Of a stretch of 64,000 nt of DNA, positions 5,128-24,563 are shown one piece after another (the first letter of the stretch is position 1; the number at the start of each line of letters is the position of its first letter). The notes beneath the pieces were generated by a model. It was given only the letters and a program-made list of their open reading frames with translations, was not told the DNA's origin and made no database searches. Location: assembly GCA_018675685.1 (NCBI GenBank), contig JABGXP010000018.1, positions 16,175 through 80,174 on the forward strand, read 5' to 3'. The stretch is from a bacterium. Lineage in GTDB: Bacteria; Patescibacteriota; Minisyncoccia; Moranbacterales; DUUL01. The position numbers and the translations under genes are program-made.

Positions 5128-5140
5128 TTTTAATTTAGAA

Positions 5141-5548
5141 ATGACAGAAGAAATGCACTATTACTTGGGAGTTGATTGGGGAAAAGTTCTTTGTGGGGTA
5201 GCAGTCGCTGACAATGAGACTAGAATTGCGAATGCATATTGTGAGGTTGCGACAAAATCCTTTTTTAGCAAGCTTGAGGAGTTAAAAAAAGAATTGGATT
5301 TTAAAAAAATTATCATTGGAAAAACAAGCGCTGGTGATGAGCAATTTACTGCCAATAATGTAGCTATCGATGACTTCACGGAGAGTTTGGAAGAAAGAGG
5401 TTTCGAAGTAGAAGCTGAGGAAGAGTTTTTTTCAACAAAAGTTGCTCAGATGAATTTATCAGAAGTCCGTAATAGAGGAATTTCAAAAAATGATAACGCT
5501 GAGTCAGCAAGGGTAATTTTGCAGGGCTGGTTAGACAGAAAGGTGTAG
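5141..5548 (+). CDS. ruvX: Putative pre-16S rRNA nuclease / Holliday junction resolvase-like YqgF/RuvX
   Basis: YLGVDWGKVLCGVAVAD N-terminal RNase H-like motif; about 135 aa. Confidence 0.7.
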   Translation: MTEEMHYYLGVDWGKVLCGVAVADNETRIANAYCEVATKSFFSKLEELKKELDFKKIIIGKTSAGDEQFTANNVAIDDFTESLEERGFEVEAEEEFFSTKVAQMNLSEVRNRGISKNDNAESARVILQGWLDRKV

Positions 5549-6553: not shown

Positions 6554-6607
6554 ATATCGAAAATTTCAAAAATTTCGGAATAAAAAATTGACAAAAACAA
6601 AAACAAA

Positions 6608-7708
6608 ATGAGCGTTGCAAATAAAAAAACAAATAAAAAAAAGCTTGTGATTAAGAAAGAAGTCATTAAAGCTAAAAAAAGCAAATTGAAAGTAAGACCA
6701 AAGGCAATAAAGCAAATTTCTCAATTAAGACACAATTTGGTGACTGATGAATGGGTTGTTGTTGCAGTTGGAAGAGGTAAGAGACCAGATGATTTTTCCT
6801 TGGAAAATGAATCTGTGCAAGAAGACGCGGATATTGAGGATTGTTTGTTTTGTGACCCAATTGCTTCTGGGCAAGAAAAAGATGTTCTAATCTACAAAAC
6901 AGATGATGACGATTGGACACTGCGAGTTTTTCCGAATAAATTTCCAGCGTTTGCTAGACCTAAAGCGGGGAGAGTTTCTCATCAAGAAGAAGGCCCGTAT
7001 TTTATGATGGATGGTGTTGGATATCACGAGGTTATTGTAACAAGAGATCACTATAAACATATTGGGAAAATGGAACCGATTATGGTTGCTGAGTTGATTG
7101 ATGCTTATCAAACCAGATACCTTGATTTAATGAACAAGAAGTCAGTAAGATATATTGAAATTTTTCATAACCATGGGAAAAAATCGGGAGCATCAATTGA
7201 ACACCCCCACTCCCAGTTAATTGCTGTGCCAGTGGTCTCACCCTTCACTGTACAAGAGTTGGCTGGAGCAGAGAACTATTACAGAGCAAACAAGAGATGT
7301 GTTTTTTGTACAATGATTAAATGGGAATTAGATTATGCAAAACGTGTGATTTTTGAAAATGATCTGTTTATTGCTTATTGTCCATTTGCTTCAAAAATGG
7401 CATTTGAAATTCGTGTGATTCCAAAAAGGCATACACCATATTTTGAAAGAATGAGTGATGAGGAGAAGATTGCAGCAGGGGAAGCCTTGCACCAAGCAAT
7501 ACGAAAATTAACAACAGTGATTGAAGGAGTAGCCTTTAATTTCTTTATTGATACAGCTCCTTGTGATGGAAAAGATTACCCTCACTACCATTGGCATATT
7601 GAAATTTTACCAAGAACTGCAACTTGGGCTGGATTTGAACTTTCCAGTGGAATGGAGATAACTGCGATTGAGCCAGAAGTTGCTGCTGAATATTTACGTA
7701 AAGCATAG
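6608..7708 (+). CDS. Galactose-1-phosphate uridylyltransferase-like HIT-family nucleotidyltransferase
   Basis: Two HIT-like halves. The FPNKFPAF and HPHSQLIAV (HxHxQ) motifs resemble GalT. It has a Lys-rich N-terminal extension. Confidence 0.7.
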   Translation: MSVANKKTNKKKLVIKKEVIKAKKSKLKVRPKAIKQISQLRHNLVTDEWVVVAVGRGKRPDDFSLENESVQEDADIEDCLFCDPIASGQEKDVLIYKTDDDDWTLRVFPNKFPAFARPKAGRVSHQEEGPYFMMDGVGYHEVIVTRDHYKHIGKMEPIMVAELIDAYQTRYLDLMNKKSVRYIEIFHNHGKKSGASIEHPHSQLIAVPVVSPFTVQELAGAENYYRANKRCVFCTMIKWELDYAKRVIFENDLFIAYCPFASKMAFEIRVIPKRHTPYFERMSDEEKIAAGEALHQAIRKLTTVIEGVAFNFFIDTAPCDGKDYPHYHWHIEILPRTATWAGFELSSGMEITAIEPEVAAEYLRKA

Positions 7709-10244: not shown

Positions 10245-11762
10245 ATGGAAATTGTGATTGGCCTGTTGGCACTTGCTTTGGGCTCTTCGGGTGGTTATTT
10301 TGCGAGAAAAGTTATCGCAAAAAACCAAGCTGGAACTGCTGAAGCAAAAGCTGTTAGAATTCTTGAAGACGCTAAAATCGAAGCTAAGAAACACTTAGTT
10401 GATGCAAAAAACAAAGCCGTCGAAGATCTTGAGGAAGTTAAAAAAGAAGAAAAAAAACAACGAGAAGTTCTGCGAAATGTTGAGCATCGTTTAGACGTCA
10501 AAGAACAAAAAATTGACAGCAGAATCTCTCAGGTTGAAAAAGAAAAGAGAACCTTGGAAAACAAGGCAAACGAAATCAGAAAAGTCAGAGAAGAAGTTTT
10601 GAGAGTAAAAGAACAGCAAGTTGAGCGCTTAGAACGTATTGCTGAAATGAAGAAAGAGGACGCTAAAAAGGTCTTGCTTTCGCTTGCAGAAAAAGACAAT
10701 AAAGACGAGATTGTCAGAAAGATTAGCACCCTGGAGAGAGAAAAAAAGGAGGAGATAGAAGGAGAGGCAAAAGATTTAATGGCAATAGCCATGCAACGCT
10801 ATGCTGGATCTCACGCCACCGACACAACAACTACCACAATCTCAATCCCTTCTGATGAGATGAAAGGAAGAATTATTGGTCGTGAAGGTCGAAACATCAA
10901 AGCTCTTGAGCGTTTAACCGGAGCTGAAATTATTGTTGACGATACTCCAGAGGCGATTGTAATTTCTGGATTTGATCCTATTCGAAGAGAAACGGCTAAA
11001 ATTGCCCTTGGAAAGCTTATTGAGGATGGTAGAATTCATCCAGCTAAAATCGAAGAGTCTGTTGAAAAAGCTCGAGAAGAGCTAAATAGAAGAATTAAAG
11101 AAGCAGGAGAGGCAGCTGTCTATGATGTTGGAATCCCAGGACTTGAAAATAAACTTTCTCAATTACTGGGACGTCTGAAATACCGAACAAGTTATGGGCA
11201 GAATGTGCTATTGCATTCATTGGAGGTCGCACATATTTCAGGAGTTTTGGCTGCTGAATTGGGATTAGATTCTGCTATTGCTAAAAAAGCAGGGCTCTTG
11301 CATGACATTGGGAAGTCAGTTGATCATGAAGTTCAGGGAACGCACGTTGAGATCGGAGCTAATATTCTAGAGAAATTTAAACAGTCTAAACAAATTATTG
11401 ACGCAGTTAAGTCTCATCACGAAGACTATCCGTTTAGAGACAATTATGGTCTTATTATTGCTGCTGCAGATGCCCTTAGTGCTTCTCGCCCAGGTGCAAG
11501 AAAAGATACACTAGAGAATTATCTGAAGCGCTTAAGAGAATTAGAAGAGGTAGTACTTTCTTTTGGAGAAGTTGATAAGTGCTATGCTATTCAAGCAGGG
11601 AGGGAAGTCCGTGTGTTTGTAAACCCAGAAAAAATTGGAGACCTAGATTCCCTTAAATTAGCCAAAAAAATAGCGCAAAAGATAGAAGAGGATCTTAATT
11701 ATCCAGGCGAAATAAAAATTAATGTCTTGAGAGAAACGCGTTCAGTTGAATATGCTAGATAA
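10245..11762 (+). CDS. rny: Ribonuclease Y
   Basis: N-terminal TM helix, coiled coil, KH domain (GRIIGREGRNIKALE) and HD domain (HSLEVAHISG...LLHDIGK). Confidence 0.92.
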   Translation: MEIVIGLLALALGSSGGYFARKVIAKNQAGTAEAKAVRILEDAKIEAKKHLVDAKNKAVEDLEEVKKEEKKQREVLRNVEHRLDVKEQKIDSRISQVEKEKRTLENKANEIRKVREEVLRVKEQQVERLERIAEMKKEDAKKVLLSLAEKDNKDEIVRKISTLEREKKEEIEGEAKDLMAIAMQRYAGSHATDTTTTTISIPSDEMKGRIIGREGRNIKALERLTGAEIIVDDTPEAIVISGFDPIRRETAKIALGKLIEDGRIHPAKIEESVEKAREELNRRIKEAGEAAVYDVGIPGLENKLSQLLGRLKYRTSYGQNVLLHSLEVAHISGVLAAELGLDSAIAKKAGLLHDIGKSVDHEVQGTHVEIGANILEKFKQSKQIIDAVKSHHEDYPFRDNYGLIIAAADALSASRPGARKDTLENYLKRLRELEEVVLSFGEVDKCYAIQAGREVRVFVNPEKIGDLDSLKLAKKIAQKIEEDLNYPGEIKINVLRETRSVEYAR

Positions 11763-11887
11763 GAAAAAATTTGATTTTTTTCTAACTATTGCCTAGAATA
11801 GGGGAAATGATGTAGAATACATTAAGAGACCAAAAAAATATTCAATTTTAATAAAAAATAACTAACAACTAGAATGGAGGTGAAACT

Positions 11888-12163
11888 ATGAACAAAAGCG
11901 CAGTAGTAGATGCAGTTGCAGCAAAAACTGGACAAAGTAAGAAAGACACTGAAATGGTAATTGAAGCAGTCTTGGATACAATCAAAGATTCACTTCAAAG
12001 AGAAGATACAGTAGCTTTCACAGGATTCGGAACTTTCTCAGTTTCTCACAGAGCAGCAAGAGAAGGAATCAATCCTGCTACAAGAGAAAAGATCCAAATT
12101 CCTGCAGTTAAAGTCCCTAAATTTAAGGCTGGAAAAGGTCTTAAGGACGCAGTTAGAGGATAA
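11888..12163 (+). CDS. hup: DNA-binding protein HU
   Basis: MNKS..VDAVA...GFGTFSV..RAAREGINP.T.E.I.IPA is the HU fold. A strong GGAGGTG RBS precedes it. Confidence 0.92.
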   Translation: MNKSAVVDAVAAKTGQSKKDTEMVIEAVLDTIKDSLQREDTVAFTGFGTFSVSHRAAREGINPATREKIQIPAVKVPKFKAGKGLKDAVRG

Positions 12164-12187
12164 TTTTCTTTATCCACTTTAAAACAA

Positions 12188-12216
12188 AGCCGCCCCTTGG
12201 GCGGTTTTGTTTGTTT
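12188..12216 (+). terminator. Intrinsic terminator after hup
   Basis: GC stem ccgcc(c)...gggcgg followed by ttttgtttgttt. Confidence 0.7.
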
Positions 12217-12372
12217 ATAGGTGTAAAAAGGCCTTTTTAAGAAAGATTGTTTGAATGGTTTGATGTATGTGTCCAAAAAGCTTTCTAGCGCTTTTAAGCG
12301 ACAGTTTTAGTGTTTTACATATTGCTTAAAATCCAGTATAATAAATACAAAGAAAATAAGCCTCACAACAAA

Positions 12373-12846
12373 ATGAAAACAAAAACAAAAAAAATTGAAT
12401 TTAAAGCTGAAAAGAAAATTGAAAAAATTGAATTTACAACTGAAAAACAAGTTGATTTTCTTGATGTCACTGATCGTATAGAAGAGTTTATTGAGAGTAC
12501 GGGAATTAAGGATGGATTAGTAAATGTTTTTTCTCCGCACACAACATCTTCAATAATAATCAATCATAACGAGGAAATGTTGAAACAGGATCTAATGAGG
12601 GTTCTATACAAACTTATCCCAGTCGACGAAAGGTATGCACATGACATGTTTGAGCTTACAAATAAGACAAAATCTGATGGACGTAGTAATGGACATAGTC
12701 ATTGTAAGGTGATGTTGCTGGGCTCTAGCGAGTCAATCCCTCTGGAAGACGGCGCTATGTTGCTAGGGGAAAAACAAAGTATTTTCTTTGTTGAACTAGA
12801 CGGGGCCAGAAAAAGATCTTTTTATGTACAAGTACTAGGTGGTTAG
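12373..12846 (+). CDS. YjbQ/UPF0047 family protein
   Basis: HTTSSIIINHNEE...HSHCKVMLLGSSESIPLEDGAMLLGEKQSIFFVE matches the YjbQ signature. I chose the start at MKTKTKK; the track ORF begins 63 nt earlier. Confidence 0.75.
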   Translation: MKTKTKKIEFKAEKKIEKIEFTTEKQVDFLDVTDRIEEFIESTGIKDGLVNVFSPHTTSSIIINHNEEMLKQDLMRVLYKLIPVDERYAHDMFELTNKTKSDGRSNGHSHCKVMLLGSSESIPLEDGAMLLGEKQSIFFVELDGARKRSFYVQVLGG

Positions 12847-12980
12847 CCTCGACGGATAAAGGATAAACATTTGACAATTTTTGGTTATCGTGTTATTATG
12901 TTTTTACGTATTAAATGGCATATAATTCTGTGCCTTGAAATGCTTTACACAAGCGATAACTACTAAATTTTTTGCGTTAT

Positions 12981-14051
12981 ATGAGCAAAGGAATACTTTC
13001 GAGTTTTGTTTTAAATAAGGTTGCAAAAAACCTCTTAGATATTTTAAAAGAAAGACCTCGTAAAATTATTATCAAGAGATTTGGGTTGGACGGGCAAGAC
13101 CCGAGAGTTTTGGGTAGCATTGGGGATGAATTTGGTATCACAAGGGAGAGAGTCAGGCAAATTGAAGGGGACAGTTTTAAAAAGCTTCAAGTCGTCAAGA
13201 AGGAAAGTGATTTTACAGCATTAATCGATGCTGCTATTGAAGTTATTGAAGAAAATGGAGGCTTTTGTGAGAAGAAAAAATTAAAAGAAACATTGAAAGG
13301 AGATATAACTAAGAAAGAAAGAAATCAAGTTATGTTCCTTTTGAATAGCTCAAAGAGATTGAAGTTTAAAAAAGGTAAGTTGAGCATGAGTGGTTTTTGG
13401 TTTTTAAAAGGTGATAAAGTGGATAAAAAAATTCTTAAAATTCACAGTGCGGTTGTTAAATTTATCAAAGCTCAAAGAAGCCCATCTCTTTTTGAGGATA
13501 TTCTTTCAGAATTTAGGAATTCAGAATTTAGTGAATTTTTCACAGGAGAGGTTGGTTTAAAAAGAATGCGAATGATTCTAGAGATGAGTAGATTGGTGAA
13601 TAAAAATATTCTTGAAGAATGGGGAATGAAGAATTGGAAGATTATCTCTGAACGAGGAGCTAGAGAAAAAGCTTTCTTAGTATTAAGAAAACATGAAGAG
13701 CCGTTACATTTCAGAAAAATTACAGATCATATAAATGATTACTGGGGAGATAAAAAAGAAGCTCTTCCACAAACAGTGCATAATGAATTGATCAAAGACG
13801 ATAGATTTGTTTTGGTGGGGAGAGGTATCTATGGTTTGAACGATTGGGGATTCCCCGAAGGGACTGTTAAGGAGGTAATGTTCTCTTTTCTAAATGACAA
13901 TGATAAACCTTTAGACAAAGAGTTGATTATTAAGTATGTGCTTTCAAAAAAACAAGTGAAAGAAACCACAGTCAAGGTTACATTGGCTGATCGAGGAATT
14001 TTCGACAAAACAGAAGATGGAAAATTCACTTTGAAAAAGCAAGGCACTTAG
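12981..14051 (+). CDS. Hypothetical protein with an N-terminal sigma-70 region-4-like HTH and no other sigma regions
   Basis: IIIKRFGLDGQDPRVLGSIGDEFGITRERVRQIEGDSFKKLQ is a textbook sigma-70 region 4.2 helix-turn-helix. The remaining roughly 290 aa are unrecognised. Confidence 0.6.
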   Translation: MSKGILSSFVLNKVAKNLLDILKERPRKIIIKRFGLDGQDPRVLGSIGDEFGITRERVRQIEGDSFKKLQVVKKESDFTALIDAAIEVIEENGGFCEKKKLKETLKGDITKKERNQVMFLLNSSKRLKFKKGKLSMSGFWFLKGDKVDKKILKIHSAVVKFIKAQRSPSLFEDILSEFRNSEFSEFFTGEVGLKRMRMILEMSRLVNKNILEEWGMKNWKIISERGAREKAFLVLRKHEEPLHFRKITDHINDYWGDKKEALPQTVHNELIKDDRFVLVGRGIYGLNDWGFPEGTVKEVMFSFLNDNDKPLDKELIIKYVLSKKQVKETTVKVTLADRGIFDKTEDGKFTLKKQGT

Positions 14052-14108
14052 TATTAAAAATTGAAATTGTGGTATTGAATAGTCTGAAATTATCAGAAAT
14101 AAAAATAA

Positions 14109-15509
14109 ATGCTACTTAAAAATACAGATCCGAGACATAAAACAACGATCATTCTAGGCGGTATAACCGTTTTGCTTTTGATTTTAGTTATCACGATGAT
14201 GTTCATTAATGGGGACATTGTCTTTTTTTCTGTCTTGCAAGATACATTTAAAAACTTATGGTGGGTTATTTTGCCAATTCCAGTTTGGAAGATTTTCTAT
14301 TTAGTTTGGGAAGAGTATATTGATTTAATGTGGGCAGTTGCAACGCCGCGTATAACACTAGAAATCATCCCTCCTGCTGACACAGAGAAAGGTCCCAAGA
14401 TCATGGAGCAAATATTTCATGGGCTTCATACACAGTCTAGTTTAAACAAATTTGAAATATATTGTGGGTGGCGAACCAATCAAGACAAGTTTTCTTTTGA
14501 AATAGCCTCACATGAAGGTAGCGTGCATTTTTATATCAATTGCCCAGCTACCACTAGAAACAACGTTGAGGCCCAAATTTACGCACAATACCCTGATACT
14601 GAGATATTCCAAGTAGAAGATTATGTTTGGTCTCATACACCAAAAAATTTGCCCAATGTTGAATGGGATGTTTGGGGAACAACATTAAAATTAGTTAGCG
14701 AAGACCAGTTGCCAATTAGAACCCACAAACATTTCAAGGAGGAAATAACAGGCGTTATGATTGATCCTTTATCTTCACTCACTGAAGTTATGAGTGCAAT
14801 AGGTAAGGATCAACATGTTTGGTTCCAGATAGTCTTTACTCCATTGCATGAAAGAGATTGGCACCCCCAGAGCATGGATTATATAAACAAACTCATTGGA
14901 AAGGGTGAGAGCGAAAAAACAAAAAAAAGCTTTTTTGGATATTTGGGAGAATTCTTTGTTCTACCTGGGAACATCCTTCGCGGAATGTTGGTTGAAGAAG
15001 CAGAACTGATAGCTCCTGAGATGGGCTCAACTGAGGAAATTGTGAAAAATGATTTTAATATTAATAAACTTTCTCCGGATGAGCAAGAGAGAGTGAAAGC
15101 GGTATATGAAAATATTTCAAAAATTGCTTTTGGCACTACAATGAGATTTGTTTATACCGGAAAGAGGGATGGTTTTAACAAAGCGCTCGGTGTCGCGGGT
15201 GTTATGGGTGCTATTAAACAATTTGGCGACACAAACTTAAATGCATTATACCCAGATCCACGTTCCAAAACCTTTGCACTTTATGGTTTTACTGATTCAA
15301 GACTGGCCTTTAGACAAAGAAGAGTGGTTCAAAATTTCAGAGACAGAAGTTTCTCTCAAGGAAAATTTGTTTTTAATATTGAGGAACTGGCAACAGTGTA
15401 TCACTTTCCAGATATGTCAGTTAAGTCGCCTAATGTTTCGAGAGTGGATGCTAAAAAGGGAAGTGCTCCAGCTAATTTGCCAATTGAATTTGAGTCATCA
15501 TTGCAATAA
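14109..15509 (+). CDS. Hypothetical membrane-anchored protein (2-3 N-terminal TM helices plus a roughly 380 aa soluble domain)
   Basis: Hydrophobic N-terminus TTIILGGITVLLLILVITMMF / WWVILPIPVWKIFYLVW. No known domain. It ends 72 nt before the ATPase gene. Confidence 0.55.
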   Translation: MLLKNTDPRHKTTIILGGITVLLLILVITMMFINGDIVFFSVLQDTFKNLWWVILPIPVWKIFYLVWEEYIDLMWAVATPRITLEIIPPADTEKGPKIMEQIFHGLHTQSSLNKFEIYCGWRTNQDKFSFEIASHEGSVHFYINCPATTRNNVEAQIYAQYPDTEIFQVEDYVWSHTPKNLPNVEWDVWGTTLKLVSEDQLPIRTHKHFKEEITGVMIDPLSSLTEVMSAIGKDQHVWFQIVFTPLHERDWHPQSMDYINKLIGKGESEKTKKSFFGYLGEFFVLPGNILRGMLVEEAELIAPEMGSTEEIVKNDFNINKLSPDEQERVKAVYENISKIAFGTTMRFVYTGKRDGFNKALGVAGVMGAIKQFGDTNLNALYPDPRSKTFALYGFTDSRLAFRQRRVVQNFRDRSFSQGKFVFNIEELATVYHFPDMSVKSPNVSRVDAKKGSAPANLPIEFESSLQ

Positions 15510-15581
15510 TGAAAGTATTGTATTATAATAACGCAATGTATTTTTTCAAAAAAGCCAAGAAAATCAAGCAAAATAAACAAG

Positions 15582-17387
15582 ATGGATAAATTCGAAAATA
15601 AGGAAATTAATTTTTTTGCTAAAACTAATTACCGCAATAAACAAAATGCCTTTGGAATCAAAACCGATGACAGACGTAGGCATATGTATGTCATTGGAAA
15701 GACTGGTATGGGGAAAACTACTCTGATCCAGAACATGGCTATTCAGGACATTAGAAATGGAAAAGGAATGGCTGTTATTGATCCGCATGGTGAGTTTGCT
15801 GAGGATTGTTTGGAAGCTGTGCCAGCGCATCGTATTAATGATGTTATTTATTTCAATCCTGCTGACTTAAAAAATCCTGTCGCATTAAATGTACTCGAGT
15901 GTCAAGATCAAGAATTCAGACACTTAATTGCTTCTGGACTGGTTGGTGTTTTTAAGAAAATATGGGCTGACTCTTGGGGGCCAAGACTGGAATATATCCT
16001 TAGAAATGCGATCTTAGCGCTCTTAGAAGATCCAGACTCAACACTATTAGGAGTAACAAGAATTCTGATTGATAAGGAATACCGAGCTAGGGTTATGGAA
16101 CATGTAACAGATCCACTAGTTAGGTCATTTTGGGAGGATGAATTTTCAAAATATAACGATAGAATGCTTACAGAGGCAATATCTCCTATTCAAAACAAGG
16201 TCGGACAGTTTCTTTCAACGACCCTTATCAGAAACATCGTTGGTCAAACAAAATCAGCTTTTGATGTTCGGAAGGCAATGGATGAAGAGAAAATTCTAAT
16301 CATGAACCTTGCTAAGGGTAGAATTGGAGAAGACAACAGTGCACTTTTAGGAGCAATGATGATTACAAAGATTCAACTTGCAGCAATGTCTAGAGTAGAT
16401 ATTGAAGAGGGCAAGAGGAAGGATTTTTATCTATATGTCGATGAGTTTCAAAATTTTGCAACAGAATCATTTGCAGGAATTCTTTCAGAGGCTCGAAAAT
16501 ATAGGTTGAATCTTATCTTAGCTCATCAATATATTGCTCAATTAGAAGAATCTGTAAAAGATGCAGTATTTGGAAATGTAGGGACAATAGCATCCTTTAG
16601 AATTGGTGCTATGGACTCCGAAACCCTAGAGAAGGAATTTGAGCCAGTGTTTTTTGCTAATGACTTAGTAAATCTGAATAAGTATCATGTATACTTAAAG
16701 TTAATGATTGATGGAGTGGCCACTAGTCCTTTTTCAGCAGCATCTTTGGAGCCTATTGATATGGAGGAGACATCCAAGAGTCTTGAGAAGATCATACAAG
16801 CCTCCAGGGAGCGATATTCTTCAGAGAGAGGCGAAGTTGAAGACAATATTATGAAATGGAGTGGCATGGTTAAGCCTGAAGTTAAGAACCGCATTTCTGC
16901 GTTGGCGCAAGGAAAAGAAACAAAAATTCCTCCTATAAACAAAAAGCAAGTCAATGTTAATCAAGTAAAAACGGACGCCTCAAGTATTCACAAAAAAGGA
17001 GTCGACTCGTCTGCGCAGGAAGATGACAGAGAGTTGTTTTCAACAAAATGTTGGGGTTGCGGAGTTATTACCAAAATACCTTTTAAGCCAGATGGAAAGA
17101 GACCAATTTTCTGCAAAGATTGTTTAAAAAATTACAGGAGAGAGCAATCTAAGCTGCAAAAGCAATTGGTTGATAGTGAAGTATCACCTGCCTTAGAAGA
17201 TAATTTGGCTAAAGAAGAGAAAGTCCAATCTTCGAAAACAGAAAAACCTTTTGCTCAAGCTTTTGAAAAACTATCTGAAGAAAAAGAAGGTTTAGGTAAA
17301 AAGAAAGAGAGTTCTTCCGAAAAACCTCAAATTGACACAAAAGGCTTGAGGGATATGATATCAAGTGCACTAAAAACTGAAAAATAG
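15582..17387 (+). CDS. TraG/VirD4/TrwB-type (type IV coupling protein-like) P-loop ATPase, soluble, with a C-terminal CxxC...CxxC zinc ribbon and a K/E tail
   Basis: Walker A VIGKTGMGKTT, VIDPHGEF, Walker B/DEF region YLYVDEFQNFA and the TraG-D_C-like LILAHQYIAQLEE...NVGTIASFRIGAMDSETLEKEF. It has no TM segment. The C-terminus reads CWGCGVITKIPFKPDGKRPIFCKDC. Confidence 0.7.
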   Translation: MDKFENKEINFFAKTNYRNKQNAFGIKTDDRRRHMYVIGKTGMGKTTLIQNMAIQDIRNGKGMAVIDPHGEFAEDCLEAVPAHRINDVIYFNPADLKNPVALNVLECQDQEFRHLIASGLVGVFKKIWADSWGPRLEYILRNAILALLEDPDSTLLGVTRILIDKEYRARVMEHVTDPLVRSFWEDEFSKYNDRMLTEAISPIQNKVGQFLSTTLIRNIVGQTKSAFDVRKAMDEEKILIMNLAKGRIGEDNSALLGAMMITKIQLAAMSRVDIEEGKRKDFYLYVDEFQNFATESFAGILSEARKYRLNLILAHQYIAQLEESVKDAVFGNVGTIASFRIGAMDSETLEKEFEPVFFANDLVNLNKYHVYLKLMIDGVATSPFSAASLEPIDMEETSKSLEKIIQASRERYSSERGEVEDNIMKWSGMVKPEVKNRISALAQGKETKIPPINKKQVNVNQVKTDASSIHKKGVDSSAQEDDRELFSTKCWGCGVITKIPFKPDGKRPIFCKDCLKNYRREQSKLQKQLVDSEVSPALEDNLAKEEKVQSSKTEKPFAQAFEKLSEEKEGLGKKKESSSEKPQIDTKGLRDMISSALKTEK

Positions 17388-17502: not shown

Positions 17503-18261
17503 ATGTTGAATAAGGAATTAGAAAAATTAGGTCTTTCTGAAAAGGAGACAAGTGTTTATTTAGCCGCTATTCAAACGGGTCCTTCATCTGTGCAAAAAAT
17601 TTCTCAAAAATCTAAAGTTAACAGAGCAACGACATATGTTATCATAGAGAGTTTGATAGAAATGGGCATGATGTCAACCTATGACGAAGGGAAAAAGACT
17701 TTCTATGTCGCCGAAAAACCACAAAGGTTAGTGGAACATTTCTCCGAGAAGGAGAAAGCCATTCATAAAAAAATTGATAAATTGAAGGGGATTATCCCAG
17801 AACTAGATTTATTGTATAATGATTATAGTGATAAACCGAGGATTAGATATTTTGAAGGAGTCGATGGTCTTCGAGCTGTTTACAATGATTTTGTTGATAG
17901 TCTAAAGGAAAATGAAACTATCTACACCTTTCTTCCGTATGATGAGTTCTATAATTCGGTTTTGAAAGATAGCCTAAAAGGTGCTAGACAGAGAAGACTC
18001 GCGAAGAACATTGATACGAAAATAATTTACACTTCAGAAGAGGGAAGAAAAATTAGTTATGAAGTGCAGAGTAGGAAAAAAGGAAAAGAATGTTTGTTTG
18101 TTTCTTTTGAAAAATATCCTTTCAAAGGAGGTATGAATGTCTACGGCAACAAAGTTTTTATGATTGATTATTCAGGTAAGTTAGGTGGGGTGGTTATCGA
18201 AAATCAGACTTTAGCTGATATGTTGAAAATCTTCTTTAATATTATTTGGGATAAAAGATAA
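17503..18261 (+). CDS. TrmB-family transcriptional regulator
   Basis: N-terminal HTH LEKLGLSEKETSVYLAAIQTGPSSVQKISQKSKVNRATTY typical of TrmB-like regulators. Confidence 0.7.
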   Translation: MLNKELEKLGLSEKETSVYLAAIQTGPSSVQKISQKSKVNRATTYVIIESLIEMGMMSTYDEGKKTFYVAEKPQRLVEHFSEKEKAIHKKIDKLKGIIPELDLLYNDYSDKPRIRYFEGVDGLRAVYNDFVDSLKENETIYTFLPYDEFYNSVLKDSLKGARQRRLAKNIDTKIIYTSEEGRKISYEVQSRKKGKECLFVSFEKYPFKGGMNVYGNKVFMIDYSGKLGGVVIENQTLADMLKIFFNIIWDKR

Positions 18262-18372
18262 TAGATCCTCTCTAGAGAATTTGCTTGGCCAATTTAAAAT
18301 TAGATTTTATTTAAATCAAATTTTAAATTGGCTGGGAAAATGTCAAAAATGACGCAAAGGAGGAAATTATGG

Positions 18373-18459
18373 ATGGCGACTAACAGTTCATTGGACGAAG
18401 AAACAACAGGAAAGAGTGGAGCTGAGACGCTTCAAAACCCTAACCAACGACGGTAGCTT
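18373..18459 (+). CDS. Candidate 27-aa small ORF (MATNSSLDEETTGKSGAETLQNPNQRR) with a consensus SD
   Basis: AGGAGG sits 9 nt upstream of the ATG. The stop overlaps a strong terminator hairpin. It is below the ORF-track size cutoff and may instead be a leader or sRNA. Confidence 0.3.
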
Positions 18460-18490
18460 GTTAGCAAACAAGCTGCCGTCGAATTTTTTT
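18452..18490 (+). terminator. Intrinsic terminator (perfect 13-bp stem)
   Basis: gacggtagcttgtt-agc-aaacaagctgccgtc followed by gaattttttt. Confidence 0.8.
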
Positions 18491-20622: not shown

Positions 20623-20901
20623 TTATTTGGTTAAAATATTTGATTTAGCTACAACGCCATAACTTTCATCTAATTTTTTTCGAAGAGCGGAAATTTCTTT
20701 TGCTGTTCCATCGATAATAATTGTAACAATAGCGGTGCAATGTTCTATACAACGACGTTGAACGTTAACGCCTAGCCTTGCAACAATTAACCTTCCATGA
20801 TCAGTAAGTATTTGATTTACTAGAGGTGCTTGATTAGTTCTGTCTTTTAGAAGGATTGAAATCGTAGCTAAATGCCTTTTGATTCTTCTTTCTGGTTCCA
20901 T
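20623..20901 (-). CDS. TM1266-family putative iron-only hydrogenase system regulator
   Basis: About 92 aa. Its pattern ISILLKDRTNQAPLVNQILTDHGRLIVARLGVNV...AIVTIIIDGT matches the TM1266/TIGR03959 family, and it lies immediately upstream of hydrogenase genes on the opposite strand. Confidence 0.6.
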   Translation of the reverse strand: MEPERRIKRHLATISILLKDRTNQAPLVNQILTDHGRLIVARLGVNVQRRCIEHCTAIVTIIIDGTAKEISALRKKLDESYGVVAKSNILTK

Positions 20902-21007
20902 TTTATTTATTTGTTACTTATTTTATTCTAATTGTAGCACAAGTTGGTTTTTTATTGTATAATATTTTTATAGTGCTTAAAAGAATAGTTAAATAAAAAT
21001 AGAAAAA

Positions 21008-21457
21008 ATGACAATTCAAAATATCCTAACAAAATATCAAGTAAGGCAAGAGAATCTTCTTAGAGCTATAAAAGAAATTCAAAAAGAGTTTGGATCTATA
21101 GACAAAACTGCTATTGATGAGATTGCAAGATATTTTAAAATGAAACCAGCGGCTGTCTTTAGCGCAGCAAGCTTTTACGATCAAATAAGTACAAAAGGTA
21201 AATTTAATATGGTCGTAAAAATTTGCGACGGGGCAAACTGTAATACTAAGAAATCAACCCGGGTTATTGAAGAAATAGAAAGGTTCTTTGGTCAAAAAAT
21301 CGATGACTCTTTTAATTTTAAAGTTAAAATACAAAGAGAAAGTTGTTTTGGATTTTGTGCTCAAGGGCCAATTATGGTAGTTAATGATGTTATGTATGAG
21401 AAAGTTACCCCAGAAAGAGTAGACGATATTTTAAGGGGCTATACTGACTTTCAATAA
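21008..21457 (+). CDS. NuoE-like [2Fe-2S] thioredoxin-like ferredoxin subunit of the hydrogenase (HydC/HndA-like)
   Basis: CDGANC...C...CFGFC cysteine pattern. Confidence 0.85.
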   Translation: MTIQNILTKYQVRQENLLRAIKEIQKEFGSIDKTAIDEIARYFKMKPAAVFSAASFYDQISTKGKFNMVVKICDGANCNTKKSTRVIEEIERFFGQKIDDSFNFKVKIQRESCFGFCAQGPIMVVNDVMYEKVTPERVDDILRGYTDFQ

Positions 21458-21509
21458 GGAGAGAATAAGAAAGTTTTGAATTTTATATCTCAAAAGAAAA
21501 TAAAAATAA

Positions 21510-22742
21510 ATGGAAGAAAATCAAAAAGTTTTAACAAAACGTTGGAGAAAGGTTGACCCAAGAGAACTTACAAGTTATCGCAAGCTGGGTGGTTATGAAG
21601 TCTTGCAAAGAGTTTTGCAAATGAAACCCCGGCTCATTATTGAAGAGATTGTAAAGTCTGGACTGCAAGGTCGTGGTGGTGGTGGATTTCCAACAGGAAA
21701 AAAATGGGAATCAGCAGCCTCTTTTGAGAGCGATGAAAAATATTTTATTTGCAATCTTGATGAGTCTGAACCAGGGACATACAAAGATCGTTTACTTGCA
21801 GAGAATGATCCCCATCAACTTATCGAAGGGATAATTATTGGTTCTTATGCTGTGGGTGCAAAAAAAGCATATATTTATGTGAATGGAAACTTTCACTTAG
21901 CTCATTTTTTATTGGAACGTGCCGTCAATCAAGCCTATGAGCATCACTTCCTAGGACAAGGATTGATGGGGAGCGATTATAGTCTAGATATAGAGATTTT
22001 TGTTGGGGCAGGGGCTTACATTTGCGGAGAGGAAACAGCTCTTATTAATTCAATCGAAGGGAAGCGAGGCGAACCAAGAAAGAGACCACCATATACGAGT
22101 GAATGTGGTTTATTTAACAAACCCACCGTAGTTAATAATGCAGAAACGATTGCAAGTATTCCATGGATTATGGAGCATGGAGGTACCAAATATGCTCAAA
22201 TAGGAAGTAATGGAGACGTAGGTACGAAGATATTTTGTATCGATGGAATTGTGAAAAATCCCGGAGCATACGAAGTTCCGATGGGGACTGATATTAATGA
22301 TCTTATTTTTAAATATGCTGGTGGCATTGAAAGTGGTGATGAACCTTGGTTTGCTCAAATAGGAGGTTCTGCAGGACAACTTGTCCCACCGAACTCTTTT
22401 GCGGATTCACCAAGTTATTCTCGAGATGCAAATGTTTCAGTTGGCTCAGGAGCGCTTTTAGTTATTAGTAAAAACCAAGACATTAAAGAATTGATGTTAA
22501 GTTGGATGAACTTTTTTCAAAGAGAGTCTTGTGGGCAATGTGTTCCTTGTCGAGAAGGAACTTTCCGCTTAAAAATGATTCTAGAGAGATTAAAGAATGG
22601 AAATTTTTCAAAGGAGGACAAGGACGATTTTCATAAATTAATTTGGACTTTGGATAATACAACTTTCTGTGCCTTGGGGAAATTTTCGGCAATTGCTTTA
22701 AAGGATGTTGTTAAATATGGTTTTTGTAAAGAACTAGAGTAA
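21510..22742 (+). CDS. NuoF-like NAD(P)H-binding flavoprotein subunit of the hydrogenase (HydB/HndC-like)
   Basis: GRGGGGFPTGKKW FMN/NADH site and ESCGQCVPCREG 4Fe-4S motif. It lacks the C-terminal ferredoxin extension found in some HydB proteins. Confidence 0.85.
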   Translation: MEENQKVLTKRWRKVDPRELTSYRKLGGYEVLQRVLQMKPRLIIEEIVKSGLQGRGGGGFPTGKKWESAASFESDEKYFICNLDESEPGTYKDRLLAENDPHQLIEGIIIGSYAVGAKKAYIYVNGNFHLAHFLLERAVNQAYEHHFLGQGLMGSDYSLDIEIFVGAGAYICGEETALINSIEGKRGEPRKRPPYTSECGLFNKPTVVNNAETIASIPWIMEHGGTKYAQIGSNGDVGTKIFCIDGIVKNPGAYEVPMGTDINDLIFKYAGGIESGDEPWFAQIGGSAGQLVPPNSFADSPSYSRDANVSVGSGALLVISKNQDIKELMLSWMNFFQRESCGQCVPCREGTFRLKMILERLKNGNFSKEDKDDFHKLIWTLDNTTFCALGKFSAIALKDVVKYGFCKELE

Positions 22743-22766
22743 AAAATAACTTATAAATTTCAAGAA

Positions 22767-24563
22767 GTGCAAATTAAAATCAATAATAAAATTTACAATT
22801 GTAAAAAAGGAGAAAGCGTTTTGCAAGTATGTAGAAGGAATGATATTAGAATTCCAACGCTTTGCAATCATAGTGACCTTTTGCCATCAGAGGGTCTTTG
22901 CAGGTTATGTTTGGTGAAAACAGGCACTAGCGAACAACTGACAACGTCTTGCCAGTTGGAGGTTTCTGACGGTTTGGAAATTACAACGGAAGACAATGAT
23001 ATCGAAAAAGCCAGAAGAATTAATCTGGAGCTACTCTGGGCTGATCATGCGGGAAAATGTTTAGCTTGTGTGAAAAATGGAAATTGCGAGTTACAAGATT
23101 TAGCCAAAGAATACAAATTAGACATCTATGATTTTGTTCCAGAAGTGGAGAAATTTGAAAAAGAAGAGCACTTAAAAGCACTAAAAGATAGTTTGAAGGG
23201 GAGGGTTGTTGATGATGGGAACACCTCTATTTTTAGAGACAATCAGTATTGTATTGATTGTAGAAGGTGTGTTAAAGTCTGTCGTGATGTTCAAACAATA
23301 GAAGAGTATTCAATGAGTGGACGCTCAATCCACACAAATGTTGGAACTGCTTGCAATGCCCCCATGGATTGTATTTTATGTGGACAATGCGCTAACGTTT
23401 GTCCGACAGCGGCAATAACCGAAAAAGACGAAACTGATAAACTTGAAAAACTACTTGCCGATAAGTTAAAAATGAAAATTTTTCAAGTAGCACCTTCTGT
23501 GCGCTTTACGCTTGGGGAAGAATTCGGTTTGGAACCAGGCAACTTTGTGGAAGAAAAAATTCCTACAGCGTTGCGTCGGATTGGGGCTGATTTAGTTTTC
23601 GACACATCTTTTTCAGCTGATTTAACGATCGTTGAAGAGGCAAATGAGCTTATTGGAAGGATAGGCAAATTTCTGCAAGGCGATAAAAATGTAAAATTCC
23701 CAATGTTTACCAGTTGTTGCCCATCTTGGGTTTTATATGTGGAAAAGTACTGGCCAGAGTACAAAGAGCATCTTTCAAGCGCAAAATCACCCCAGCAAAT
23801 GCTAGGAGCAATGATCAAGACATATTATCCAGAGAAGCATAAAATGTCCAAGAAGAGTATTACGAGTATTTCGGTGATGCCCTGTACCTCGAAAAAATTT
23901 GAGGCTCAACGAGAGGGTATGGGAAGAGATGGTTTAAGGGATGTTGATTTGGTAATCACGACAAGAGAGCTTAGTCGATTTTTAAAAAGAAAAAAACTTG
24001 ATTTTTTGAGACTAGAGGATCAAGCATTTGATCAAACCCTTGGAACTTATTCTGGTGCCGGACTTATTTTTGGTTCAACCGGTGGTGTGATGGAAGCTGC
24101 GCTGAGAACAGCATATGAAAAATTAACATGCGAAACATTACCCTCGTTAGATTTTAAGGAAGTTAGAGGCGAAAAAGGTTTAAAAGTTGCTGAAATCACA
24201 ATACCTAAAGGTTCTTGTAACGTAAAAGAACTGAAAATTAAAGTCGCAGTAGCTCATGAAATTAGAAATGCAAAAAAAATCTTGGAAATGATTAAAAGAG
24301 GTGAGTGTGACTATCATTTTGTTGAAGTCATGGCTTGTCCTAGTGGTTGTCTTGGTGGAGGAGGGCAGCCAATCCCAACAAACGCAGAAATCAGAAAAAA
24401 ACGTCGAGACGCAATTTATGAAAAGGACTCTAAGTTGCCAATTCGAAAATCACACAAGAACCCAGCTGTAAAACATTTGTACAAAGACTTCTTAAAGGAA
24501 CCAGGAGGCGAGAAACCAGAGGAATTATTACATACAAGTTACATAGATCGAAGCAAAAAGTAG
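22767..24563 (+). CDS. hydA: [FeFe]-hydrogenase catalytic subunit (HydA) with N-terminal 2Fe-2S and 4Fe-4S domains
   Basis: H-cluster motifs TSCCPSW (L1), MPCTSKKFE (L2) and EVMACPSGCLGGGGQP (L3), plus the N-terminal ferredoxin-like Cys clusters. GTG start. Confidence 0.9.
   Translation: MQIKINNKIYNCKKGESVLQVCRRNDIRIPTLCNHSDLLPSEGLCRLCLVKTGTSEQLTTSCQLEVSDGLEITTEDNDIEKARRINLELLWADHAGKCLACVKNGNCELQDLAKEYKLDIYDFVPEVEKFEKEEHLKALKDSLKGRVVDDGNTSIFRDNQYCIDCRRCVKVCRDVQTIEEYSMSGRSIHTNVGTACNAPMDCILCGQCANVCPTAAITEKDETDKLEKLLADKLKMKIFQVAPSVRFTLGEEFGLEPGNFVEEKIPTALRRIGADLVFDTSFSADLTIVEEANELIGRIGKFLQGDKNVKFPMFTSCCPSWVLYVEKYWPEYKEHLSSAKSPQQMLGAMIKTYYPEKHKMSKKSITSISVMPCTSKKFEAQREGMGRDGLRDVDLVITTRELSRFLKRKKLDFLRLEDQAFDQTLGTYSGAGLIFGSTGGVMEAALRTAYEKLTCETLPSLDFKEVRGEKGLKVAEITIPKGSCNVKELKIKVAVAHEIRNAKKILEMIKRGECDYHFVEVMACPSGCLGGGGQPIPTNAEIRKKRRDAIYEKDSKLPIRKSHKNPAVKHLYKDFLKEPGGEKPEELLHTSYIDRSKK

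Follow-up and report, generated by a model that had tools for sequence, protein, structure and literature searches.

A conserved Patescibacteria operon that probably encodes a two-piece DUF8128-type coupling protein and its HTH partner

Type IV coupling proteins (T4CPs) that lack a transmembrane (TM) segment and have a membrane partner are already a recognised subclass, represented by TraJ/TraI of pIP501 (PMC7434980). According to a survey of 2025, 2,918 of 3,035 CPR genomes have VirD4-like genes, mostly far from virB4, and T4CP homologues occur in more CPR genomes than VirB4 (2,417); canonical VirB4 is also present in most of these genomes, stand-alone VirB4 N-terminal-like proteins (TrsD) are common, and its authors suggested that the T4CPs were exapted (PMC12102498). 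In Southlakia epibionticum, the T4SS gene cluster has no recognisable coupling protein or relaxase (Wang et al. 2023; PMC10633639). A t4cp homologue, which may or may not be an orthologue of the gene g3 described below, lies elsewhere in its genome and is non-essential, while the T4SS genes are essential; together with the excess of T4CP over VirB4 genomes, this argues against strict T4SS dependence (PMC12102498). The literature that we searched holds no description of a DUF8128 partner, of the VirB4-like fold of such a partner or of a three-gene operon.

The operon analysed here lies in a window of 64,000 nucleotides (the whole stretch of DNA under analysis) and consists of the genes g1, g2 and g3 (Table 1). 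The open reading frame scan found all three on the + strand, where a sequence-only reading of this DNA had placed them. They lie in a stretch of Patescibacteria chromosome whose flanks are housekeeping genes, as that reading had it: an HU-like ORF (called from its own letters rather than by a domain scan), YjbQ/UPF0047, a TrmB-family regulator and MnmA (called because it matches the gene annotated as tRNA_Me_trans in the related locus L003). The sequence-only reading had also seen no relaxase, VirB4, VirB6 or integrase in the window and, indeed, none of these families was found among the ~35 larger ORFs scanned across it. The flanks show no larger conjugative element.

Table 1. Positions of the three genes, their domains and nearby features in the window.
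Feature	Position	Strand	Description
Promoter-like site	12871..12899	+	TTGACA-17 nt-TATTAT with TG extension; ~80 nt 5' of g1 start; consensus scan 11/12
g1	12981..14051	+	356 aa, cytoplasmic; alternative TTG start 12972 (359 aa)
g1 sigma-70 region 4	13032..13190	+	Residues 21-73 (359-aa numbering); Pfam PF04545 Sigma70_r4, 43 bits
g1 HARE-HTH domain	13665..13847	+	Residues 232-292; Pfam PF05066, 40 bits
g2	14109..15509	+	466 aa; PF26449/DUF8128 in precomputed Pfam annotation
g2 N-terminal membrane region	14142..14306	+	Residues about 12-66; hydropathy and AF2 helices
g2 cytoplasmic alpha/beta domain	14346..15419	+	Residues about 80-437; VirB4 N-terminal-domain-like (and EccE-like) predicted fold
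g3	15582..17387	+	601 aa, soluble ATPase
g3 Walker A GKTGMGKT	15696..15719	+	Residues 39-46; read from sequence
g3 Walker B YLYVDE	16428..16445	+	Residues 283-288; read from sequence
g3 treble-clef Zn finger CxxC-x17-CxxC	17028..17132	+	Residues 483-517; Pfam PF23477, 45 bits; TIGR04272, 47.9 bits
TrmB-family winged-helix regulator	17503..18261	+	Pfam PF01978
Terminator-like hairpin	18448..18481	+	15-bp stem, 8 GC pairs, then T-rich tail (AATTTTTTTA)

Conservation of the trio was assessed over 84 related Patescibacteria loci, with testable cases as denominators. g1 lies directly upstream of g2 in 77/79 loci, g3 directly downstream of g2 in 75/77, and all three are adjacent in 69/73, an arrangement far beyond chance and the synteny in relatives on which the sequence-only grouping depended. 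Two relatives (L012 and L045) have g1-g2 without g3 beside them. Synteny persists even where g1 and g2 are only 35-40% identical. A median of 74 nt separates g1 from g2, and a median of 30 nt separates g2 from g3. Median identity amounts to 63% for g3 (82 loci), 40% for g2 and 35% for g1; with more than 8,000 homologues, g3 shows a conservation that is unusually high for a CPR protein. YjbQ and MnmA recur as neighbours in distant genomes. Across the 84 loci the three genes form a closed unit with no conserved neighbour beyond themselves, and genes for a T4SS, a relaxase or an integrase do not recur beside them; only L001 has adjoining T4SS genes, namely two T4SS_pilin-domain genes after g3. 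This lack of a conserved T4SS neighbour speaks against T4SS coupling, as does the lack of a relaxase, which leaves the usual conjugative substrate missing.

Judged by its sequence, g3 is a VirD4/TrwB-lineage P-loop ATPase with intact catalytic motifs and no membrane segment. Its Pfam matches, TrwB_AAD_bind (59.5 bits; cutoff 20.5), DUF87 (36) and TraG-D_C (24.8), all pass their cutoffs, its strongest NCBIfam matches are conjugative TraD and VirD4-like families (all far under the curated cutoffs), and TrwB is its sole PDB match by sequence, so that the best matches are T4CPs rather than HerA or FtsK. Among the profiles that the sequence-only reading had suggested for a search, TraG-D_C in g3 and Sigma70_r4 in g1 were recovered, AAA_10 in g3 was not. 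Every T4CP motif string quoted there is located in g3: besides VIDPHGEF, YLYVDEFQNF, LILAHQYIAQLEE and ASFRIGAMDSETLE, these include Walker A, which is invariant in 50 homologues and present in 74/77 orthologues; D287 and E288 of Walker B are invariant in the 50-homologue set. The N-terminal TM anchor is missing as had been claimed, no hydrophobic segment being found in g3. The structure model is of moderate quality (pLDDT 67; residues 332-386 poorly predicted) and predicts an all-helical insert at residues 110-234. The C-terminal tail around the Zn finger is largely disordered, with a short conserved terminal helix at 586-599. The finger's cysteines (C490, C493, C511 and C514) are invariant in homologues, and the motif is present in 75/77 CPR orthologues, whereas the fused Streptomyces T4CPs used for comparison have no record of it; their g3-aligned region extends to ~30 residues short of their C-terminus.

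The large domain of g2, previously left without family or function, belongs to DUF8128, and relatives of g2 comprise 3,277 cluster representatives at E<=1e-3. In the AF2 model (pLDDT 79, pTM 0.72) the predicted fold of this domain most resembles the N-terminal domain of VirB4, and a conserved motif, ELATVYHFPDM...P..LP, closes it. The earlier estimate of two to three TM helices was roughly right: one strong TM segment with a hydropathy of 2.86 spans about residues 13-33, a weaker aromatic helix follows at about 48-66, and the AF2 model has three N-terminal helices (8-34, 37-54 and 56-78). Following the positive-inside rule, the N-terminus would form a hairpin with both ends cytoplasmic.

Taken together, g2 and g3 are colinear with single ~800-aa T4CPs of Streptomycetaceae, broken at the ~15-residue linker between the domains. 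These proteins combine DUF8128 (match at E<=1e-5) with TrwB_AAD_bind/TraG-D_C, and 118/120 matches have PF26449 and PF10412 in one chain. Their gene sits between those of VirB4 and the relaxase in complete conjugative T4SS clusters of the order T4SS_pilin, TrbL, PrgI, VirB4, DUF8128-T4CP, Replic_Relax and SLT/NlpC-P60. The g3 profile matches the C-terminal half of the Streptomyces protein at hhalign E 3e-54 (367 columns, 34% identity). For g2 and the N-terminal half the match is colinear but weak (E 7e-4 to 5e-3, probability 7-26%; HMM scores of 8-16 bits), scores that come from CPR-only profiles, and this link is drawn from the precomputed Pfam match, colinearity and shared motifs. On a haloarchaeal plasmid (Natrinema), DUF8128 and ATPase are, as in the CPR locus, split into two adjacent genes, and the g2 profile matches the 382-aa plasmid protein with 97.9% probability (E 6e-13); in Priestia the ORF is fused. 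The fused counterpart and the haloarchaeal pair support the proposal, already made from the sequence, of a split T4CP whose membrane part comes from a separate upstream gene, with g2 as the membrane-anchored N-terminal module and g3 as the motor module.

The third component, g1, has a variable middle between a primary-sigma-type region 4 HTH and a C-terminal HARE-HTH with an extension, the latter part being conserved. The sigma part had been recognised before, while the remaining ~290 aa, taken to be unknown, turn out to include the HARE-HTH domain. A profile of 27 g1 orthologues matches SigA/RpoD region 4 in the PDB (E about 1e-18), and the HARE-HTH has a sub-threshold match to the RNA polymerase delta subunit (TIGR04567) and contains the most conserved block of the protein, PQTVHNELIKD.RFVLVGRGIYAL. 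No catalytic motif or sigma region 2 was found in g1.

We thus consider it probable that g1-g2-g3 is a conserved operon for a two-piece "DUF8128 type" T4CP with a dedicated HTH partner, for which we infer the g2-g3 contact, a g3 ring, ATPase activity and the substrate as follows. g2 would insert into the membrane as a helical hairpin and dock g3 there via its VirB4-NTD-like domain and the conserved C-terminal HFPD motif. By likeness to TrwB, DotL and VirB4, g3 would form a ring that accepts and drives a macromolecular substrate, most likely DNA, at the expense of ATP, and the channel would most likely be the VirB4/VirB6/PrgI/pilin T4SS encoded elsewhere in Patescibacteria genomes. g1 would bind DNA, either as regulator of the operon or as substrate adaptor, modelled on TraM binding the TraD tail and perhaps acting via the Zn-finger tail of g3.

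It is possible, though rather unlikely, that the split T4CP has instead been exapted, as the survey authors propose for CPR, into a self-contained membrane-docked DNA-handling motor independent of a T4SS, with g1 as the subunit that recognises DNA or RNA polymerase. Such a motor could process or import foreign DNA, handle the chromosome or nucleoid at the membrane, or remove protein-DNA complexes. The closed trio among housekeeping genes, the stronger conservation of g3 relative to its partners and the excess of T4CP over VirB4 genomes are consistent with exaptation, as are the CPR Zn-finger tail and the two domain types of g1, both best known from RNA-polymerase-associated proteins. However, the nearest non-CPR relatives with informative context are coupling proteins within T4SS clusters, pilin-domain genes directly follow g3 in L001, and the module encodes no independent channel or pore protein. 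Furthermore, S. epibionticum is reported to be viable without comEC (PMC12857230), so that an essential DNA-import role is unsupported there.

The fold of g2 and the frequency of TrsD-like proteins in CPR could also point to a split VirB4 that serves as an ATPase for assembly or pilus biogenesis; g2 would then correspond to VirB3 together with the N-terminal domain of VirB4, and g3 to the C-terminal domain of VirB4. We regard this as very unlikely, as g3 is T4CP-like by its Pfam families and does not match AAA_10, TraC_F_IV or P-loop_TraG, which mark the Streptomyces VirB4-like gene; its hhalign E-value to VirB4 of the same Streptomyces cluster is only 6e-3, and its match to pSK41 TrsE is confined to Walker A. 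Moreover, g2 is not similar to TrsD (E 0.42), Streptomyces encodes VirB4 separately from the DUF8128-ATPase, whose gene adjoins that of the relaxase, and most CPR genomes have canonical VirB4 as well.

A defence apparatus, one option of the sequence-only reading, would make g3 a DptH/mad8-like ATPase and the HARE-HTH of g1 a sensor of modified DNA in anti-phage or DNA surveillance. Indeed, g3 matches the PADLOC model mad8 of the MADS system at 56.8 bits, close to its Pfam score for TrwB, restriction enzymes carry HARE-HTH domains (Pfam family description), and MzaA gives the best NCBIfam and PADLOC score for sigma region 4 of g1. Yet the MzaA match spans only generic sigma region 4, for which RpoD and RpoS score similarly, and PADLOC gives no match for g2. 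A scan of the larger ORFs in the window found no methyltransferase, nuclease or DptF/G-like partner, and 2.9 million viral contigs yielded no relative. A near-universal, syntenic and vertically inherited distribution in a housekeeping setting is the opposite of patchy defence islands and renders this role highly improbable. A decayed integrated conjugative element or plasmid remnant kept by chance, for which the many plasmid records with g3 relatives (645) and the ICE-like clusters of the fused form might speak, is effectively refuted, in agreement with the sequence-only reading, by three intact genes with invariant catalytic residues, retained synteny and a base composition like that of the flanks; in addition, the YjbQ and MnmA neighbours recur, and the surroundings of the module lack an integrase, a relaxase and a repeat or tRNA boundary (sole tRNA at 38.9 kb).

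As to transcription, a single promoter-like site precedes g1, a consensus match only in AT-rich DNA where 32 such sites were found against 21 expected. Within g1-g3 the terminator-like scan returned only two weak 3-GC stems, both in the TM-coding start of g2, and it found none between g3 and the TrmB-family gene; the first strong terminator-like site 3' of the module is the hairpin after trmB. The TrmB-family gene is possibly co-transcribed with the module here; present beside it in only 5/84 loci, it is a neighbour and not a conserved module member.

The module consists of three consecutive forward-strand genes, encoding a helix-turn-helix protein (g1), a 466-aa membrane protein of the family DUF8128 (PF26449; g2) and a soluble 601-aa ATPase of the VirD4/TrwB lineage (g3). 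A sequence-only reading had taken these genes for a module that looked like a split type IV coupling protein (T4CP) or a novel membrane adaptor, and the positions that it gave for the three ORFs were exactly borne out by ORF calls (see table). Spacers of 57 nt (g1–g2) and 72 nt (g2–g3) lie between the genes, and from g1 to g3 the sole terminator-like matches are two weak 3-GC stems in the TM-coding start of g2. No oriT-like or operator-like inverted repeats were found upstream of g1, between the genes or after g3, and the 5' region of g1 showed no Rfam match to a riboswitch or leader RNA at E ≤ 1.

Positions of the three genes and of further features of the window
Feature	Position	Strand	Remark
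Promoter-like site	12871–12899		upstream of g1; near-consensus TTGACA-17-TATTAT with TG
g1	12981–14051	+	ORF call; alternative TTG start at 12972
g2	14109–15509	+	ORF call
g3	15582–17387	+	ORF call
Inverted repeat	18279–18341		29 nt, imperfect, 83% complementary, 5-nt loop; between TrmB-family gene and the 18448–18481 hairpin
First strong terminator-like site	18448–18481		past TrmB-family gene
[FeFe]-hydrogenase gene set	20623–24563		comprises the four genes below
TM1266-like putative hydrogenase regulator	20623–20901	−	
NuoE-like hydrogenase subunit, putative	21008–21457		assigned from look of sequence
NuoF-like hydrogenase subunit, putative	21510–22742		assigned from look of sequence
HydA	22767–24563		598 aa, ferredoxin-like N-terminal domains
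Stretch without ORF of ≥100 aa	35082–37060		~2 kb; largest ORFs 88, 67 and 61 aa
ParA and ParB genes	49794–51821		ParA matches AAA_31/CbiA
SecD/SecF-type protein	59181–60983		PpiC-type rotamase domain at residues 177–265

A scan of one genome per species yielded 80 loci with relatives of the module, all from Patescibacteria (CPR), which four further loci brought to 84; these are mostly of Paceibacteria type, and the breadth across all CPR classes is given by literature counts and family size. Gene g1 adjoins upstream in 77 of 79 loci and g3 downstream in 75 of 77, and all three genes stand together in 69 of 73, as expected of the proposed unit. Median identities amount to 35% (g1), 40% (g2) and 63% (g3), with median gaps of 74 nt (g1–g2) and 30 nt (g2–g3). 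When the flanking ORFs at the 84 loci were clustered, only housekeeping genes emerged and no further near-universal neighbor; the next commonest are MnmA (32 loci from ORF clusters, 34 from tblastn), AlaRS, HtrA, DivIC and PpiC, together with a small coiled-coil protein, and GtrA also occurs. The nearest relatives of g2 and g3 belong to Patescibacteria of the Moranbacteria/Parcubacteria type, and a g2 homologue occurs in Kuenenbacteria (ABY1). In two closer relatives (loci L012, g2 at 1831–3093, and L045, g2 at 6001–7392), g1 and an intact-looking g2 are followed directly by the TrmB-family gene and mnmA with no g3 between; g3 may lie elsewhere in these genomes or may have been lost. Among loci L008 to L081, many metagenome-assembled genomes with the module and typical CPR neighbors were deposited as 'uncultured Bdellovibrionales' or 'Pseudobdellovibrionaceae', which looks like systematic taxonomic mislabelling.

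The motifs that had been quoted for g3 are all found in its sequence. Its Walker A (GKTGMGKT, residues 39–46; G39–T46) and Walker B motifs (YLYVDE, residues 283–288, with D287 and E288) are invariant in 50 homologues, and Walker A is kept in 74 of 77 orthologues. Three Pfam families score above their curated cutoffs, TrwB_AAD_bind (59.5 bits), DUF87/HerA (36 bits) and TraG-D_C (24.8 bits), and residues 483–517 match a treble-clef Zn finger, which is kept in 75 of 77 orthologues. Among NCBIfam models, conjugative TraD and VirD4-like families are strongest, all far under their curated cutoffs, and TrwB is the sole PDB match by sequence. In profile and structure matches alike, T4CP families outscore HerA and FtsK; HerA and FtsK families, accessory domains included, are not the best matches of g3, and the earlier T4CP identity withstands this comparison. 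In the AF2 model, the core (residues 50–330) is well predicted, residues 332–386 poorly, and the tail appears disordered except for the Zn finger. Eight helices at residues 110–234, placed between strands 88–91 and 238–242 with pLDDT of 80–95, would form an all-alpha insert. A homologue search returned at least 8,000 candidates; the best 120 of these share 56–100% identity, a very strong conservation, and homologues carry public names such as 'type IV secretion system DNA-binding domain-containing protein' and 'CxxC-x17-CxxC domain-containing protein'. Since g3 has no hydrophobic segment, the membrane anchor being carried by g2, it matches the recognized subclass of T4CPs lacking a transmembrane domain (TMD; PMC7434980).

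For g2, local Pfam and NCBIfam models gave no match, and it is precomputed annotation that assigns PF26449 to it and its homologues. Searched against 1.8 billion proteins, a profile of 57 homologues gathered 3,277 cluster representatives (E ≤ 1e-3), whereas among PDB sequences it matched nothing at E ≤ 10; in the literature searched, no mention of DUF8128 was found. The protein has one strong TM helix (~13–33) and a weaker aromatic helix (~48–66), followed by an alpha/beta domain. In Foldseek searches against the PDB, the predicted structure appears to adopt the fold of the VirB4 N-terminal domain. VirB4 is the sole ATPase in either of the two lists of fold matches, and TrwB, HerA, FtsK or any other stand-alone P-loop ATPase is absent from both. 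Because g2 has no P-loop and VirB4 is the only ATPase matched, we infer that the model superimposes on the non-ATPase N-terminal domain of VirB4. In contrast to this domain (TrwK, PDB 7o42, 8rtb, 8rtd), with which g2 shares no detectable sequence similarity (Pfam, none to g2), DUF8128 is paired with an ATPase of the T4CP rather than the VirB4 lineage. Identity of DUF8128 with TrsD, the VirB4-N-terminal-like protein of pGO1/pSK41, was rejected (hhalign of the g2 profile with pSK41 TrsD, E 0.42).

The pairing of g2 and g3 is backed by relatives in which both parts form one protein. A tblastn search of g3 against plasmids hit 645 records, and one match lies inside an 812-aa protein of Embleya plasmid NZ_CP108778.1 that is annotated, as is a 799-aa protein of Streptomyces CP109496.1, as 'type IV secretory system conjugative DNA transfer family protein'. 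The Embleya gene is surrounded by genes for PrgI (VirB3-like), a VirB4-like ATPase (AAA_10, TraC_F_IV, P-loop_TraG), a Replic_Relax relaxase and an NlpC/P60 hydrolase. Searching with its product retrieved ~800-aa T4CPs of Streptomycetaceae, 118 of 120 of which have PF26449 together with PF10412, DUF87 or TraG-D_C. On the Streptomyces chromosome CP109496.1, where the DUF8128 match falls into the strong class (E ≤ 1e-5), the order is T4SS_pilin, TrbL, PrgI, VirB4, the DUF8128-T4CP, relaxase and SLT/NlpC-P60. The g3 profile aligns with the C-terminal half of the Streptomyces T4CP (hhalign, probability 100%, 34% identity over 367 columns), g3 columns 20–391 corresponding to residues 403–778, and g2 columns 82–456 fall colinearly on residues 78–386. 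The statistics of the N-terminal half are weak with CPR-only profiles (E 7e-4 to 5e-3; 8–16 bits in 117 of 120 proteins), and both sides have in common the patterns DPL..L...QH.W.QI..P and ELA..H.P...P...R...P..IP. The two alignments leave a linker of ~15 residues, and the gene break in CPR therefore lies exactly at the domain boundary. In the window, the DUF8128 module and the VirD4-like ATPase thus keep the same colinear order on two genes, which share a reading frame and are separated by two stop codons and the 72-nt spacer; they are separate genes in all 76 loci having both.

Further pairs occur outside these groups. On the haloarchaeal plasmid pNATPE01 of Natrinema, a 382-aa protein encoded directly upstream of a 994-aa T4CP-like gene matches the g2 profile (probability 97.9%, E 6e-13), and on a Priestia megaplasmid a DUF8128-like region continues into the Walker A region within one ORF. 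Fused or split pairs are thus found in Streptomycetaceae, Natrinema, Priestia and CPR, so the DUF8128-T4CP pairing is old and widespread: two genes encode it in CPR and haloarchaea, a single one in Streptomycetaceae and on at least one Bacillaceae plasmid. Altogether, we consider it very probable that g2 and g3 represent a split DUF8128-type T4CP. This would be the first structural and contextual assignment for DUF8128 (~3,300 cluster representatives), as a VirB4-N-terminal-like membrane module of a T4CP subclass that occurs, in fused or in split form, among Actinomycetota, Bacillota, haloarchaea and CPR, and it bears on the divergence of VirB4 and VirD4.

Several neighboring observations concern these relatives. 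After the DUF8128-like regions of Priestia megaterium pFDU301A (L087, 7001–9379) and a Pontibacillus plasmid (L091, 10521–12259), the g3-like ATPase is detected by tblastn only as three separated pieces with gaps of 0.2–0.9 kb, possibly owing to pseudogenes, insertions or large inserted domains; both plasmids are megaplasmids of Bacillaceae. No annotation covers the region in Priestia, and in Pontibacillus only a 184-aa 'hypothetical protein' CDS (10518–11072) underlies the first piece. Among plasmids, g3 finds its best match (38.7% identity, E 2e-92) in a soluble ATPase of 395 aa that stands alone on the alphaproteobacterial plasmid NZ_CP081110.1 of Sulfitobacter mediterraneus (L085, 6986–8173), where it adjoins transposases and has no DUF8128 gene beside it. 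The Streptomyces CP109496.1 cluster (L088) also encodes a 97-aa T4SS_pilin-family protein (5024–5317). Among the type IV secretion systems (T4SSs) of monoderms, pilins resembling VirB2 have been called peculiar to Patescibacteria (PMC12857230), and the CPR T4SS may be modelled more closely by this actinobacterial cluster than by Firmicute plasmids. A tie between the TrmB gene of the window and the TrmB-like gene past the Streptomyces cluster was rejected (E 0.91; TrmB in 5 of 84 loci only).

In g1, only two parts are conserved among 82 orthologues. The N-terminal ~75 residues correspond to primary-sigma region 4 (E ~1e-18 for SigA/RpoD in the PDB; Pfam, 43 bits). The other part, residues ~200–345, includes a HARE-HTH domain that scores 40 bits and also matches RNA polymerase delta below threshold. 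Searches of Pfam, NCBIfam and PDB profiles found region 4 and no sigma region 2, and there is no recognizable catalytic motif; hence, g1 is neither a sigma factor nor a relaxase. These domain matches indicate a DNA-binding protein with two putative HTH domains that possibly also binds RNA polymerase. Sigma-like genes near the Bacillaceae DUF8128 loci were dismissed as counterparts, being complete sigma factors (regions 2 to 4) devoid of HARE-HTH.

Comparison with known systems places the module close to, and yet apart from, several conjugative machines. The DUF8128 T4CPs of Streptomycetaceae resemble g2 plus g3 in having a hydrophobic N-terminus, a DUF8128 domain and then a VirD4-like ATPase. 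They differ, however, in being one polypeptide, encoded beside a Replic_Relax relaxase within a complete T4SS cluster. Moreover, they have no recorded Zn-finger domain, the region aligned to g3 reaching to within ~30 residues of the C-terminus, no g1-like gene beside them, and a distribution like that of mobile elements rather than phylum-wide synteny. TrwB (R388), VirD4 and DotL, which share with g3 the P-loop domain with an all-alpha insert and the TraG-D_C region and provide its best profile and structure matches, own an N-terminal TM domain, have no VirB4-NTD-like module and act with a relaxase and oriT, whereas in the module a protein of its own (466 aa) provides the anchor, and relaxase genes are neither found in the window nor recurrent in the flanks of the 84 loci. 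The combination of a soluble T4CP with a separate membrane protein has a precedent, because the TMD-less subclass includes TraJ/TraI of pIP501, where a soluble coupling ATPase is encoded next to a membrane protein thought to recruit it (PMC7434980). TraI is a small membrane protein, unlike g2 with its 466 aa and VirB4-like domain, the likeness being one of architecture, and TraJ/TraI are plasmid-borne in a 15-gene tra operon. The related pSK41 TrsK reaches only E 3e-3 against g3, and we rejected an assignment of g3 to the pSK41-type Firmicute T4CPs on this weak similarity. Another of the closest known systems is the pair EccE and EccC of type VII (ESX) secretion. For g1, TraM of the F plasmid offers an analogy only: a small DNA-binding protein beside the coupling protein hands DNA to the C-terminal region of the ATPase TraD, and g3 has the TraG-D_C 'TraM recognition' region; other DNA-binding relaxosome accessory proteins may be likened in the same way. 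The domains of g1 (sigma region 4 and HARE-HTH) nevertheless differ from the ribbon-helix-helix of TraM, and there is no oriT or relaxase here. In the literature searched, we found neither a DUF8128 partner with a VirB4-N-terminal-like fold, nor fused or split DUF8128-T4CP relatives in other phyla, nor a conserved g1-g2-g3 operon.

A large part of bacterial diversity belongs to Patescibacteria. Their sole genetically tractable species depends on an essential T4SS, the gene cluster of which in Saccharibacteria contains no recognizable coupling or relaxase proteins (Wang et al. 2023, PMC10633639). We propose, with moderate confidence, that the module encodes a two-subunit coupling ATPase, in which g2 would anchor g3 at the membrane, g3 may form an ATP-driven ring by analogy with known coupling proteins, and g1 would supply DNA recognition or regulation, the machine most likely feeding a CPR T4SS encoded elsewhere; both its tie to the T4SS and the kind of substrate are inferred. 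The operon, conserved in the sampled Paceibacteria-type lineages and with a g2 homologue in Kuenenbacteria, is a concrete candidate for the missing T4SS substrate receptor, or else may have been recruited to a separate DNA-handling job.

The latter, an exaptation of the same machine for a role independent of the T4SS, is the main rival, which we regard as possible and distinctly less probable. In its favor, the three genes form a closed unit, g3 is extremely conserved and has a Zn-finger tail, which the fused Streptomyces T4CPs compared do not have, and the T4CP distribution in CPR is reported to be wider than that of VirB4, two classes and roughly 600 genomes being reported as devoid of VirB4. 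In the accessible part of their report, Quinonero-Coronel et al. (2025, PMC12102498) count 5,713 VirD4-like T4CP homologues in 2,918 of 3,035 CPR genomes, only 148 of them near virB4, find the T4CP homologue of S. epibionticum not to be essential and raise exaptation as a possibility; no upstream partner or operon is described there. Tentatively, the operon might even be an autonomous machine of the sampled Patescibacteria that does not serve a T4SS. A membrane-docked ring ATPase with its VirB4-like N-terminal module on a separate subunit would be guided to DNA or RNA polymerase by the sigma4/HARE-HTH subunit in a core task specific to these ultrasmall episymbionts, such as the import or other handling of host-derived DNA at their membrane. 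If true, the machine would represent a new class of function that descends from the coupling proteins of conjugation.

A defense system is very unlikely: g3 resembles the ATPases DptH (DptH/DndH) and mad8 (MADS), yet the likeness is confined to the ATPase and is outweighed by near-universal, phylum-wide synteny and housekeeping surroundings, with no companion defense genes and no patchy, island-like distribution. Equally improbable is a split VirB4, despite the fold of g2, since g3 groups with the T4CP (E 3e-54) and not the VirB4 (E 6e-3 only) of the same Streptomyces cluster. Accordingly, it has no ATPase domain of the VirB4 lineage; it lacks matches to AAA_10, TraC_F_IV and P-loop_TraG, the families marking the Streptomyces VirB4-like gene, and pSK41 TrsE matches it over Walker A only.

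That the genes are an ICE remnant seems extremely doubtful, as they are intact and syntenic in distant relatives, with no integrase, relaxase or repeat boundary nearby. The window is gene-dense, has ~35% GC, nearly all genes on the forward strand and uniformly positive GC skew apart from local dips. A Pfam scan of its ~35 larger ORFs (small ORFs and a few mid-sized ones lie outside this set) identified central metabolism, translation, ParA/ParB, NusA, trigger factor, SecD, LigA and the [FeFe]-hydrogenase operon, and none of integrase, relaxase, VirB4 and VirB6. No VirB4-type T4SS or relaxase gene recurs within ±6 kb of the 84 loci either, in agreement with the sequence-only reading, which had seen no conjugative element around the module. 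An association with phages or viruses was rejected, as no relative turned up in 2.9 million viral contigs (IMG/VR).

The sole T4SS-related neighbor at the 84 loci is found in L001, from a Moranbacteria genome, where two proteins of 440–458 aa (11327–12703 and 12773–14095) follow g3, each with an N-terminal T4SS_pilin domain whose match (26.9 bits) barely exceeds the cutoff of 26.6. Because the ParA and ParB genes lie ~32 kb downstream of the module and the cumulative GC skew climbs almost monotonically, with small dips near 1–3 kb, 34–36 kb and 43–45 kb, the module may lie on the leading strand, not far from the replication origin. The stretch without larger ORFs, where the skew dips locally, yielded chance-level Rfam matches only. 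In the SecD/SecF-type protein, the PpiC-type domain is inserted between the first periplasmic segment of SecD and the P1 head subdomain, an unusual fusion.
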